DNA of 64,000 nucleotides from NCBI RefSeq assembly GCF_963921235.1, contig NC_086108.1:85996001-86060000 (forward strand). The letters are read 5' to 3'. The notes beneath the pieces were generated by a model that did no database searches, was not told the origin of the DNA, and saw nothing but the letters and a program-made list of their open reading frames with translations. The DNA is from Mobula hypostoma (Eukaryota). Made by a program: the position numbers and the translations under genes. Positions within the stretch are counted from its first letter, which is position 1. Each line of letters starts with the position of its first letter. This document shows positions 7,401-39,459 of the stretch, piece after piece.

Positions 7401-9580
7401 TGTGGAATTGCCTGTGGACATTGACCACAGTAAACTTGCTCAGTTCTGTTTATTTATTTACTGACATCAATTTGTTAAGAGCAAGTTTTTATTACTTATT
7501 TCAAAATCTGCTACTTCAGAAAAAAAAACCCTTATAAAAATGCTGGTACAGTCACCCAGATGGTTTGTCTGCAAATCATTGATGCCAGATTCAAAGCATG
7601 ACAGATTGTGGGAATTGCTGGACTACAAAATGCCAGACTAGAGAGCTTAGACCTGCAGTGGCAAAATAGTAGCTGCAGAGAGAAATGAACAATATACTGC
7701 AGGCAGTCTATACGCATTCTGTTCAAAGTTTTTCCTTGTTGTCAATACATCTGTTTTGCACCAATACCTGAGGCACACTGACTGCCATTGACCTGTCCTT
7801 CTCTCACTCCCTCTTCCACCCCCCCCCCGAAAAAGATAACAGTAAAGTACGGAAGTGGATGCTCCACTTTTACAACATTTATTGCAGAGTCAGTTCTCTT
7901 CTAGAAACAGACAAGAAATACCTTGCAAATCCCTCAAGTCCTTTCAGAAAATAGTTCATAATTATATCTTGCCATTTCATCAGATCACTTAAGCAGGTTA
8001 GAAGTACAATATGGTCTCTTTCTGCAGCAGCTGAAACCCATCTGGAACAGGCGTTACAGTATCTGTTGAGCGGCAACACGGTTATTCTTGCAAAGAGATT
8101 TAGAGAACATAGAACATTACAGTACAGTACACGCCCTTTGGCCCACAATGTTGTTCCGACCTTTTAACCTACTGTAAGATCAATCTAACCATTCCCTGGA
8201 AACAAATAATGGGTTAATCATGGGAGTGATCCTGACTTAAATGATTTCAGTTTACAAGGTACTCTTATCTATCCTCTCTTCAAGTGGGGGAAATAAACAA
8301 AGCATTTAAGAGTCTACAACAACTTAAAAGGAGTCACTATAAAGATTAATGCCTGGGTTTAACAAAACAAGAGCTATTTTTAAGGACCACAGCCAGGCGT
8401 ACGAGAGGTCCAAGGATGAGGTGATGAATATATAACTGAAAGATCTACAGTAATGTAAGATGATCAACTGCAATTCCTTGCATTGCTGCAGCTAAGAGAT
8501 GTCAAGAGAAATAGGGAAAACTCAAAGAATAGTGGATGCACATTCAATTAACCCCTGGAGCTTGGCGGTATCAGCAAGAGGTAATGACCTTACCAGGAAT
8601 ATGAAGTAATGAGAAGCCATCAATATCTTCCAAGAATGCGCTGAATTTAGCTTATTTGCCAAGTAAGTTGATCTCCCTTCCTGATATTTAATTGGTTAAA
8701 TAAGCAGATCTCTACCCAGTATCTAGACAGGCGCAAAACACATATACAGAAAATGCTGGACATACTAAGCAAGTCAGAAAACATCTGTTCAGAGGGGAAT
8801 AATGTCAATCTAAGAGGGTGAAGGGCTTCTATCAGAGTTCAGGCTTCTGCGTTGATAAAGAAAGTTTACTTCATTTCATGGTAAGGAAGAGTAATTTTCA
8901 GTTTTGCATTCATTTTTCAATGAAAATCTGATCACACCAGAGACAGAGAGTGAGAGAAAGGGATATGGAAAGATGAATGATGCATGCTCTTGTAAACTGC
9001 AACACTTCTCTGGTATGAAGAATGGTTAAATTTTAGTGAGAGAGGCTTTAGAGAATGTTATTGATGGAGAAGCACGTGTTAATTGCTGGTTCGTGACGAA
9101 CACCCCTCTTCTTCTCTCTCACCTTTTGTGTGCGGTCAGCAACGTGTCTCGTTAAATCCCTGAAGCACTTCTGGAGTTGGCATCCACATGAGAAGTCTGT
9201 AGGTCAGAAATATTTTCCTGTATTACTTCTCTGCAGGTCACTGAAGAAGAATATGGAAACCCAAATGTACTTGACCCACTGTTAATTCAGAACATACAAT
9301 GTTTCTTGTTCCTGTGTTAACCTGTCATCTATCTTAAGGTAAAGGGTAGAAGATAAAGAGGGAGCCATTTGGATAAGTATGTGTGGGTTATAAACCTCTC
9401 ATAGACCACGAATAACTTAAACCTGATAGAGAAGATCTTGTTGTTGGAACATTACTCCTGAAGGTCTTAAGAACCGAGATCCAAGAACTGAGCTATACTG
9501 GATAATGTTCTGTAGGTGATGGCATAAGCAGAGCTTTGGGAAGTGGCTGTGCAACGATGCTGCATGATAGGTGACATCTA

Positions 9581-31569: not shown

Positions 31570-32330
31570 TAGCTAAATTAAACATATTGCTGGCAGTGAG
31601 CAATGCTGTATCTTCTGCATAAAATTACAAAGAGACATTGATAGATTAAGTGAGTGGACTAAATGTTGACAGATGGATTTCAACATAAATAAGTCTGAAG
31701 CTGTCTAATTTGTACCAAAAAAAAAAAATAGGATAGTCATTATTCAAATAGCAAAATCTGTGAATCGTGGAGGTTCAAAGAGATCTAGATGTCCAGGTGC
31801 ATAGGAAGTAAAGGTGCAATTATCAGGTACCAAAACATCAAATAAACATCAAATGAGTAATGACTGTTACGGCTTTTCCAAATGGATTGACACAATATAC
31901 AGGGGGTGAAATTTTGCTACAGCAACACAAAGCTGTGGACTGACGTCAGCTCTAAACTTTTCCATAGATGCTGTCTGCTGTTCCTCCAGCATTTTGTATG
32001 TGTTGATTGGATTTCCAGTATATGCAGATTTTCTCTTTTTTGCTGTGGTTAACCCACATTTGGTGCTTGGTGCCTAGTTTCACATACTGCACCATAAAAA
32101 GAATGCAATGGTGTGGCAAGGAAATGACCTGAATTTTGTCAAAGCCCCTGGGTTAACTCATGCGAAGAAGTCACACAGATTAAGAGTTCCATCAGCTGCA
32201 GTATAAAATGATGTGGAGTGGCTTGACTGTGATTTTTAAGACTGAATGCAAGTGATAAATAACCTGGTGAGGAAGTTTAGAACAAGAGGACATAATTCTT
32301 GCTCTAGGTCAGTTGTTGGGAATCATGGGA
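31570..32330 (+). mobile_element. Very old CR1 RT fragment with a nested Penelope-like tail (31939-32041, TSD GCTGTGG)
   Basis: 'ttacaaagagacattgatagattaagtgagtgg' (LQRDIDRLSEW); the nested piece carries 'catagatgctg...ttcctccagcattttg'. Confidence 0.65.
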
Positions 32331-33916: not shown

Positions 33917-35688
33917 AAAGCATTATATCTCAATGCATAGAATACTGTATTAGAAATAATGATCTTATTGCACTTTTACAGATTGTCAAGTATGATGTTG
34001 TGGTTATCACTGAATCATGGCTGAAGGGTGGTTGTAGTTCAGAGCTGAATGTCCAAGGTTACAAGTTGTATTGGAGGGAGAGGAAAGTCGACAGAGGGGG
34101 TGGTGTGACTCTGCTGGTAAAGAGTGGCATCAAATCATTAAAAAGATGTGACAGAGGATTGGAAGATGTTGAATCCTTGTGGGTTGAGTTAAGGTGCTCA
34201 AAAAGCTAAAAGACCTAAAGGTAAATAAGTCACCCAGACCAGATGAACTGTACCCTATGGTTCTGAAAGAGGTAATGGTAGAGATTGAGGAGGAATTAGA
34301 AATGATCTTTCAAAAATCATTGGACTCTGGCATGGTGCCAGAGGACTGGAAAATTCCAAATGTCTTTAAGAAAGGAGGGAGGCAGCAGAAAGGAAATTAT
34401 AGACCAGTTTGGAAGATGTTGGAGTCAATTTTTAATTGCGTACTTGGTGACACAAAACAAGATAGGACAAAGTCAGCATGGTTTCCTTAAGGGAAAATCT
34501 TGCCTGACAAACCTGTTGGAATTCTTTGAGGAGATTACACATAGGATAGATAAAGGGGATGCAGAGGATGTTGTATATTTGGACTTTCAGAAGGCCCTTG
34601 ATAAGGTGCCACACATGAGGCTGTTTACCAAGTTAAGAGCCCATTACAGGAAAATTACTGGCATGGTAAGAATATTGGCTGATTGGTAGGAGGAAGCGAG
34701 TGGGAATAAAAGGATCATTTTTTGGTTGGCCGCCAGTAACTGGTGGTGTTCTGCAGGGGTCAGTGTTGGGACTGCTTCTCTTTACACTGTGTATCAATGA
34801 CTCGATGGTGGAATAGGTGGCTTTGTTGCCAAGTTTGCAGATAGTACAAAGGTTAGCGGAGGAGCAGGTGGTATTGAGGAAACAGGCAGGCTGCAGATGA
34901 ACTTAGATTAGGAGAATGGGCAAGGGAGTAGCAAATGAAATACAATGTTGGAAAAAGCATGGCAATGCACTTTCATGCAGACTATTATCTAAAAGGGAAT
35001 AACTTGGGAGTCCTTATGCAGAAAGGTTAACTTGCAGGTAGAGTCGGTGGTGAGGAATTCAAATGCATTGTTAGCATTAATTTCAAAAGGTCTTGAACAC
35101 AAGAGCAGGGATGTGATACTGAGGCACTGGTGAGCCCTCACCTTGAGTATTGTGAACAGTTTTGGGTGCCTCATCAAAGAAAAGATGTGCTGGCATTTGA
35201 GAATGTTCAGAGGAAGTTCACAAGGAAGATTCTGGGAATGAAAGGGTTATCATAAGAGGAACATTTGATGGCTCTGGGTCTGTACTCACTGGAAATTAGA
35301 AATATGAGGGGAGGATCTCATTGAAATCTATTGAATGTTGAAAGGCGTTGACAGTGTAGATGTGGAAAAGATTTTTTCCATGGTAAGGGAGTCTAGGACA
35401 AGAGGACACAGCCTCAGGATAAAGGGGCGTCCATTTAAAATAGAGATATGGAGAAATTTCTTTAGCCAGAGGGCGGTAAACTTGTGGAATTTATTACAAC
35501 AGGCAGCTGTCGAGGCTAGGCCATTGGGTGTATTAAAGTAGTTCTTGACTGGACAGGGCATCAAAGGTTACAGGGCGAAGGCTAGGACATGGGGCTGAGG
35601 AAGGGAAAAAAGGATCAGCCATGATTAAATGGCTGGGCAGACTTGATGGGCCAAATGGCCTATTCTGCTCCTATGTCTTATGGTCTTA
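33917..35688 (+). mobile_element. Internally deleted CR1 (APE start joined to RT, intact 3' tail)
   Basis: VITESWLK..LWVELR jumps at ~34193 to LKKLKDLKVNKSP; GKSCLTNLLEFFE, YLDFQKA; tail 'ctcctatgtcttatggtctta'. Confidence 0.9.
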
Positions 35689-35748
35689 TCCTTCACCTCA
35701 TTGGCCAAGATCTGCCACAGGGAATCCCAACCATGTATAGAATGGACA

Positions 35749-35848
35749 TGTCCTGATGAAGGGTCTCGGCCTGAAACGTCGACTGCACCTCTTCCTATAG
35801 ATGCTGCTTGGCCTGCTGCGTTCACCAGCAACTTTGATGTATGTTGTT
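35749..35848 (+). mobile_element. 100-bp Penelope-like mini-retroposon carrying a hammerhead motif
   Basis: Perfect 13-bp TSD TATAGAATGGACA (35736-35748 / 35849-35861); near-identical second copy at ~36117-36224. Confidence 0.85.
35750..35783 (+). ncRNA. Minimal type I hammerhead ribozyme motif
   Basis: GUC-CUGAUGA-A-GGGUcucgGCCU-GAAAC-GUC-GAC: conserved CUGANGA and GAAA boxes, stem I GUC/GAC, stem II, palindromic ACGU stem III, predicted cleavage after C35780. Confidence 0.65.
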
Positions 35849-36116
35849 TATAGAATGGACAACAGGCTTTTCAATCTCAACCAGTTCAAGGTCAAGAACA
35901 ATATCAGCACTACCATATCCTGGAGCTTCGGTACACAGATGACAACGCCATTGCAGCACGTTCTGAAGAAGACCTCCAATGTATCCTGAATGCCTTTGCC
36001 AAGGCATATAGAGTCTTGTTTTGAATATTAGAAAAAGATACAGGTCTTATATTTGACAGCACCCAACTAGCCATTTATCTGGCCATCCATATAAGTTGAT
36101 GATATTGTCCTTGAAA

Positions 36117-36224
36117 ACCCTTCGTTAGTCCTGACAAAAGGTCTCGGCCTGAAACGTCGACTGTACCTCTTCCTAGAGATGCTACCTGGCCTGCTGTGTT
36201 CACTAGCAACTTTGATGTGTGTTG
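36117..36224 (+). mobile_element. Second hammerhead-motif mini-retroposon; core mutated to CUGACAA
   Basis: agtc-ctgacaaaaggtctcggcct-gaaac-gtc-gact; downstream sequence nearly identical to 35784-35846. Confidence 0.8.
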
Positions 36225-38130: not shown

Positions 38131-38185
38131 TTAGAGATGTTTGCACATGATGTAGAGATAGCATCAAGCATTCCAAAAAAATGAG

Positions 38186-38410
38186 CAGCACACAAAATAT
38201 TGGAGGAACTCAGCAGGATAGACAGCATCCGTGGAAAAGAGTAAACAGTCAACATTTCCGGCCGAGACCCTTCACCTATCCTGATGAAGGGTCTCGGCCT
38301 GAAACATTGACTGTTTACTCTTTTCTACAGATGCTTCCAGGCTCGCTGAGTTCCCCCAACATATTGTGCATTGCTCGGATTTCCAGCATCCGCAGATTTT
38401 CTCATGTTTG
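38186..38410. repeat. Palindromic (inverted) duplication of the hammerhead-motif element
   Basis: Arms ~38186-38274 and ~38285-38372 are reverse complements (aagagtaaacagtcaa..gccgagacccttca / tgaagggtctcggc..ttgactgtttactctt); CTGATGA at 38281-38287. Confidence 0.85.
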
Positions 38411-39459
38411 GAATTGCTAAGAAAGACCTTGCTGAAACCGCAAGACAGGACGACCATTGCTAAACCACAGAGACAATATGCGATGGACAGAGCTAAGCAA
38501 TGGCCAACAGATCTGATTAAAGCCCCTGTCATGAATTTGAATATCACACACGAGCATGGACGGAAAAGCTGTAAGAGAGATTTGTGCTATTGAAGTATGA
38601 GAAAGTGACAATGGTGAGATTATAACCAATTACTTTAAACTTTCAATAGTACTTCCATCTTAAACCCACTCATTCAACTTCAACCCTCTGGGGTCATTAC
38701 ATTCAGCACAAACTCAGCTGGATCTATCCCAGTGATAAGGTGGGGCATAAGAGGAGGGTAGGGCTGTGTAGGCTTTGGCATGTGATTAACCTTCAGGTTT
38801 CCCAATACGTATCCACCATTGAAACAGCATGTCGGGATTGTGATGTAGTCGTATGCAGTTGCAGACACAAGGGACACCACCTCCTGCAGATTCCCCTTCA
38901 AACTCTGATTCGGAAGCATATTGCGGGTCTTTCATTGCTGCTGGGTCTCATTTCTGAAACTCCCTATTTAACTAAATGCATTGGACAAAAGGATTTAGAG
39001 ATTGCAGAGGTTCAGGCAAATAACACAAGGACACTGAAGGATGGTCTTTAAATAGTGACTTTATCAGCAATGTCCACATCCTGAACAATAACTTGAATAA
39101 GTAACCTAAACACAAGAAATTCTGCAGATGCTGGAAACCTCCTGCTGAGTTCCTCCAGCATTTTGTGTTTGCTGTTCAAATAATTAGCCTTTTCCTGTTC
39201 ACACTGAGTGAATTCTCTTTAAATACTGCTTCATATGGTATTCCATAGAGATAGTTATATGGGTTTTCCTAATGATATCCAATGATGGATCTAAATATAC
39301 ACACAACATGACTGATAAAAAGTGCTGTATGTTAAAAATTAGGATTTCTGAAATGATGATAAGCCCTGTTTTGCTCAGGCTGTTGTATTCAATGGATCTT
39401 CTCCATCATGAAGTTAATATTCAAACGGACCCCTTGAGGATTATAAAGCAGCCAGAAAA

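Follow-up and report, generated by a model that had tools for sequence, protein, structure and literature searches.

Minimal hammerhead ribozymes (min-HHRs) in the pLTRs of metazoan Penelope-like elements (PLEs) were described by Cervera and De la Pena in 2014 (PMC4209133), and according to the available text of that study their monomers do not cleave and their dimers cleave weakly. In the Penelope element of D. virilis, the 5' end of helix I is where an intron ends (PMC4209133), and the accessible part of another report places this intron end 121 nt (46 + 75) from the start site (PMC2377424), so the RNA of that element does not start at the hammerhead. For the Poseidon element PAc of Anolis carolinensis, the available account states that the RNA is cleaved only with the protein of the element and that insertion needs no hammerhead cleavage (Frangieh et al. 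2024, PMC11167929). Hammerheads in PLE pLTRs have been known since 2014, and the insert described here is an ordinary instance. Its family is young, has near-intact ORFs and comprises about 80,000 motif copies, and it provides a record of where PLE reverse transcription starts and stops, a poorly understood matter. The sharp 5' boundary of its copies at stem I bears on the origin of pLTRs, palindromes and retrozyme arrays and on the purpose of the ribozyme. The available text of PMC4209133 lists 40 species, among them no cartilaginous fish, and reports no pile-up of 5' ends. No published account of this Penelope family in cartilaginous fish, or of a 5' pile-up, was found in the literature searched, most subscription papers, Repbase and Dfam being outside its scope.

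The insert lies in a 64-kb window, which is the whole stretch of DNA that was analysed. The 13-mer TATAGAATGGACA occurs on the plus strand at 35736-35748 and again at 35849-35861 and is absent elsewhere in the window on both strands; even with 400 placements allowed, such a pair is expected by chance with a probability of about 1e-5. The two repeats form a perfect 13-bp target-site duplication (TSD), within the family mode of 13-15 bp, around an insert of 100 bp (35749-35848), which bears out the preliminary description of a retroposed 100-bp insert with a 13-bp TSD. With the insert removed, the flanks form a single open frame, and the rejoined flanks match an RT relic in another locus (L132) across the junction, though weakly (tblastn E 0.002). 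In one contig of a public run (X6), 35735 is followed directly by 35849, with 113 bases left out, 13 of which fit either side; this is an empty site, orthologous or paralogous. The sequence broken by the insert (35690-36100) is an old non-LTR RT relic, which we take to be RTE-like. The stretch before it (35000-35689) is the 3' end of another abundant LINE, presumably CR1/HER1-like, and its last 28 bases recur at many loci.

The minimal type I hammerhead motif of the insert occupies 35750-35783 on the plus strand and is the single match of the minimal-hammerhead descriptor in the window. Stem I (35750-35752 / 35781-35783) has only 3 bp in this copy, the core (35753-35759) is followed by an extra A, and stem II (35761-35764 / 35769-35772) has a G10.1-U11.1 wobble and a 4-nt loop; the motif also contains GAAA and a palindromic ACGU, and the predicted cut falls after C35780. 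Positions relative to the cut are given below on a scale on which 0 is the first base after it (window 35781). This anatomy agrees with the minimal type I hammerhead of the Penelope kind that had been claimed from the letters, and it fits the consensus of PMC4209133 (Fig. S3). As far as the accessible part of that source goes, the features in common are a U-rich lead-in, a short helix I, CUGANGA with one extra base, a helix II starting with G, GAAA, a palindromic 15.2/16.2 and NUH, and G10.1-U11.1 is found in several published motifs. Over 934 kb, the descriptor gave 186 matches in the real sequence and 0 in the reversed-sequence control. The covariance-model search that had been proposed as a check came out negative, as Rfam returned no hammerhead at gathering score and none even at E<=10. 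In stability, the fold of the motif did not exceed that of shuffles (z +0.6 to +0.7), which is expected because the motif is so small.

Most young copies have an intact core, C at N7 (214 of 250; U in the window copy) and U at 11.1, which makes the G-U at the base of stem II a feature of the master and not decay of the window copy. The 186 descriptor matches all belong to one lineage, and since this is a single sampled lineage and the descriptor itself requires pairing, it is within these bounds that they contain only one-sided changes (G-C/G-U, U-G/U-A) and loop changes, with no two-sided compensatory helix change. The motif is near-identical in young and older subfamilies while the sequence on either side diverges, which suggests that the hammerhead is under selection in the master elements. 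The hammerhead of the window copy is itself likely to be inactive, given its 3-bp stem I and the lack of an intact partner in the window.

To place the insert within the genome, its sequence and motif were counted and followed upstream. The 3.48-Gb genome contains 2,507 exact matches to a 36-base stretch of the insert and, for a degenerate hammerhead core pattern, 81,255 matches compared with 0 for the control, in line with the high copy number that had been claimed. The available text of PMC4209133 gives about 4,000 motifs for coelacanth and 9,000 for Xenopus and likewise describes thousands of solitary motifs from truncated PLEs; a section title of PMC7229834 gives 120,000 for axolotl, more than the count here. 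Among the first 30 loci, many stay alike over as much as 1,085 bases of upstream sequence, the longer of them extending into a GIY-YIG frame. An 80-aa RT piece used as a query found 50,670 candidates in the genome, and 12 loci were taken from the longest frames among the 150 that were scored. The insert sequence is present downstream of the long ORF in all 12 (93-98% identity in 11, 85% in the twelfth), in most of them at a distance of about 300 bp from the ORF stop, with 94-98% identity in L061-L065. The longest frames show a 1,014-aa ORF with RVT_1 (E 3e-5) and C-terminal GIY-YIG (E 1e-3) matches, both under the Pfam curated cut-offs, together with the motifs DKG, YIDD and YIGET and a C-X4-C-xx-C linker at residue 881. 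This ORF has 1,481 database relatives, the best of which is a Chiloscyllium punctatum protein (71% identity), so that a cartilaginous fish is the likely host. The pLTR sequence is also found directly before the ORF, with 356 exact pLTR-ORF junctions and the ATG at +138. The suspected link to Penelope is thereby made, through the 93-98% match behind an ORF with RT and GIY-YIG.

The parent combines an ORF carrying RT plus C-terminal GIY-YIG with a pLTR both 3' of and before the ORF, an optional tail, adjacent inverted copies and TSDs. Judged from this architecture and from its linker, which is common to Nematis, it is an EN+ PLE of the Neptune/Nematis type. Such elements, in the accessible part of Craig et al. 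2021 (PMC8557442), likewise have one ORF with RT, a C-terminal GIY-YIG and a CX2-5CxxC linker, and they show 5' truncation, partial tandems, adjacent inverted copies and an optional tail of 30-40 bp (here about 35). PAc belongs to the Penelope/Poseidon clade, which according to the same source is without the Zn linker that the parent element has here. In three near full-length elements (L062, L063 and L061), the ORF runs for about 1,010 aa without interruption and has a proline/serine-rich region ahead of the RT; inverted pairs in L063 and L072 are 97-98% alike. From the uninterrupted ORFs and the similarity of the inverted pairs, the family is judged to be young and may still be active. Long minisatellite arrays with periods of about 53 and about 26/52 bp were seen near element copies (L070:6066-9901 and L067:109-2002).

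The insert itself (35749-35848, plus strand) reads as a short pLTR copy of this Neptune-type PLE, extending from -31 to about +65. It is identical in 95/96 positions to the end of an ORF-linked copy (L089); T35749 and the final two bases of the insert deviate from the reference pLTR. When 77 short and 130 long young copies were compared, the commonest diagnostic haplotypes occurred in both classes; one haplotype (7 copies) was confined to long copies, and none was particular to short copies. This identity and the haplotypes common to short and long copies indicate that the stubs derive from autonomous masters, and the separate non-coding mobile family that had been proposed is not supported.

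An anchor downstream of the cut has 82,748 exact matches, and the ends of individual copies were scored in a sample made up of the first 100 of these, which all lie on contig C1; the two arms of a palindrome were scored separately. The 3' ends fell at +62..+73 in 38 copies, at +92..+112 in 61 and at +256 in 1, which gives two 3' ends about 35 nt apart, around +66 and +101; the window copy is in the shorter class. A TSD of at least 9 bp was present in 62/100 copies, with a mode of 13-15 bp, and an adjacent inverted arm in 53/100. Three palindromic inserts on the same contig (L189, L190 and L191) share the same odd junction and have different TSDs, as if one palindromic copy had been re-copied.

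The insert had been described as beginning with the hammerhead, and this points to a real regularity, as the first bases of stem I are where 5' ends pile up. In the same sample, 5' ends fell in -36..-25 in 21 of the 77 copies reaching -25, compared with about 5% per 12 nt nearby (p 2e-10, for an interval chosen after looking), and the other 56 run on upstream past this interval. Genome-wide, starts with four mismatching flank bases numbered 120 at +12, 416 at 0, 2,028 at -31, 238 at -34 and 220 at -41, as raw counts that are not normalised and rest on a different 26-nt anchor at each position. When the 100 matches listed out of 3,699 were tallied by eye base by base, there were 2 starts at -34, 20 at -33, 32 at -32, 25 at -31, 10 at -30 and 11 at -29, so the pile-up is at -33 to -31. 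When 30 of the -31 starts were inspected, 11 were simple inserts with a TSD, 5 were simple with no TSD found, and 14 had an upstream element piece, mostly an inverted arm; 3/30 (1/30 in another 30-copy check) were older subfamilies with a different upstream sequence and not true ends. An upstream element piece was found in 19/30 inspected copies, nearly always as an inverted arm, and microhomology at such places can shift the apparent end.

These observations make it highly probable that the insert is a short pLTR copy of a PLE with RT and GIY-YIG, whose enzyme likely took an uncut RNA as template and copied no more than its first ~100 bases into a staggered cut. In such an insertion, the GIY-YIG domain would nick the target DNA, and the RT would start internally, at either +65 or +101, for which the anole Poseidon element is an in vitro precedent; in the available text on PAc (PMC11167929), two internal RT starts also lie a tail-length apart. 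Reverse transcription would then halt at about -32, where the RNA likely begins, either at a transcription start or at a processed end, on an AG resembling a 3' splice site. Repair would leave the TSD of 13-15 bp. A role in the master's life cycle, in protein-assisted cleavage or in dimer cleavage in tandem transcripts, is the likely reason that the hammerhead is kept, and in solitary stubs such as the window copy it is likely a decaying passenger.

The pile-up at stem I is likely to represent run-off cDNA from the 5' end of the RNA, a reading favoured by the sharp upstream edge and by re-copied motif pieces before -31. In its fuller form, which we hold only tentatively, the stubs would be complete reverse transcripts of an RNA leader, the Penelope equivalent of strong-stop DNA, with the RNA 5' end at stem I, at the conserved AG of a 3' splice site. 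If this is true, a splice or start site would switch the 5' arm of the ribozyme on or off, and palindromes, partial tandems and retrozyme arrays would originate in template jumps from the RNA end. The starts at the cut site, which exceed the +12 control (416 compared with 120), were counted against this explanation.

Alternatively, the stubs may have the same origin and the pile-up may be an RT stop on a longer RNA, through a stall at a protein-bound 3' splice site or polypyrimidine tract, or through fold-back of the cDNA by the stem I arms, terminating or self-priming; we regard this as possible, although not the reading we would choose. In the young family, stem I is directly preceded by a branch-point-like motif, a pyrimidine tract and two AGs, the tract leading to a YAG. 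Of the older copies (73-85% identity), at least 13 of the 30 listed contain another pyrimidine tract, which likewise reaches a YAG in this position, and contigs of related organisms have the same consensus upstream of stem I; all of this would suit a stall. The layout of the D. virilis element, with its intron ending at helix I 121 nt from the start (PMC4209133, PMC2377424, in the parts available), favours a stop on a longer RNA as well, as does the finding that 2/20 pLTR-ORF junction copies reaching -25 stop in -36..-25, which is below expectation for a fixed RNA start, though the numbers are small. Of 12 inspected starts at 0, moreover, 7 are palindrome junctions in which the other arm ends at -25..-32, as fold-back would give. 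However, the upstream edge is very sharp (20 starts at -33 and 2 at -34, of 100 listed), and several junctions have short re-copied pieces of the motif before -31, as is expected of jumps from a template end. No short copy among 77 is spliced: 4/77 have a direct upstream piece, and none of these ends at the five donor-like sites. Among the inspected -31 starts, no shared short first exon was seen before -31. The lack of spliced genomic copies here is consistent with the intron retention reported for PLEs, as far as the accessible literature goes. In the L062 element, splice-donor-like sites are present at -656 and -577 in the linker/EN coding region and are possible partners of the acceptor-like AG.

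It is improbable that self-cleavage by the hammerhead sets the inserted unit and that self-cleaving RNA comes from the stubs on a large scale. In most young copies the core is intact, it is near-unchanged across subfamilies while the flanks diverge, and starts at the cut are 3.5 times the +12 control, as this explanation would have it. However, the predicted cut is read across in 85/100 sampled copies and only 2/100 start within 2 bases of it; among the pLTR-ORF junction copies, 22/30 extend upstream across the cut and 0/30 start there. None of the 12 inspected position-0 starts is a simple TSD-flanked insert: besides the 7 palindrome junctions, 1 follows an ORF piece and 4 are without a TSD. 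A clean class of 5' ends at the ribozyme cut was looked for among 100 copies, 30 junctions and 12 position-0 starts and was not found. Because palindrome junctions make up 7/12 of these starts, the excess at position 0 is most readily attributed to fold-back by way of the complementary arms of stem I. The window copy, with a stem I of 3 bp, begins 31 nt upstream of the cut. In PAc, according to the available text, the uncut RNA is the template and no ends were found at the hammerhead cut, and the same is probable here; the PAc hammerhead overlaps the start codon, whereas here the predicted cut is 138 nt upstream of the ATG. That the stubs are a high-copy source of self-cleaving RNA, as the preliminary description had suggested, is doubtful, since the copies are mostly solitary or head-to-head, the insertions continue across the cut, and the minimal hammerheads described in the accessible parts of these sources are inactive as monomers (PMC4209133) or dependent on their protein (PMC11167929).

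It is likewise improbable that the units of 100-135 bp form a non-autonomous family of their own (SINE- or retrozyme-like), itself transcribed and re-copied, for although a discrete size class exists, a tandem array of hammerhead-bearing units occurs at L185 and PLE-derived retrozymes are reported from vertebrates in the available text of bioRxiv 10.64898/2026.07.22.740005, the 77 short copies have no haplotype of their own next to the 130 long ones, the window copy matches an ORF-linked end in 95/96 positions, and it is a monomer with no tandem repeat. Like the non-LTR retrozymes in the accessible parts of PMC7229834 and that preprint, the window copy has a type I hammerhead, is non-coding and is derived from a pLTR; the preprint's retrozymes include chondrichthyan ones. 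Unlike them, it is a TSD-flanked monomer with a minimal and not a canonical hammerhead, with no tandem unit and no sign of circular RNA. Considered as a retrozyme, for which the hammerhead recurs in at least two consecutive units, the window copy was rejected, being a monomer. The L185 array (G000:C2:157812000-157821900) is on the minus strand and consists of four tandem 310-bp units, each running from near -34 into the ORF start. Each unit carries a hammerhead motif, two with a GUC triplet and two with GUU, and the whole is a natural retrozyme-like array.

At least three motif-bearing copies within 3 kb had been counted in this part of the window. Three such places were indeed found, and the hammerhead is intact only in the 35749-35848 copy, the motifs at 36128 and 38279 being broken. 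The second young short copy (36125-36224, plus strand) has a broken core on inspection of the sequence, as G8 and G10.1 read A. The third (38183-38410) is an older head-to-head, palindromic copy that is 77% identical to the young reference, with an inverted arm at about 38183-38274 and a direct arm with the tail at 38279-38410, and its cleavage triplet is decayed. An Rfam match to MIR6020 (E 1e-5, far under gathering) was rejected, as it is the palindrome at 38229-38330. As for the four tail-only relics that had been listed, blast found nothing at E<=0.5 for the two near 8745 and 37110 and recovered the two near 31940 and 39110. The first of these (31957-32043, plus strand; E 8e-9) is an old relic of the 3' end and tail without a hammerhead, and the second (39108-39178; E 1e-5) is an old relic in which an inverted tail is joined to a piece of the 3' end.
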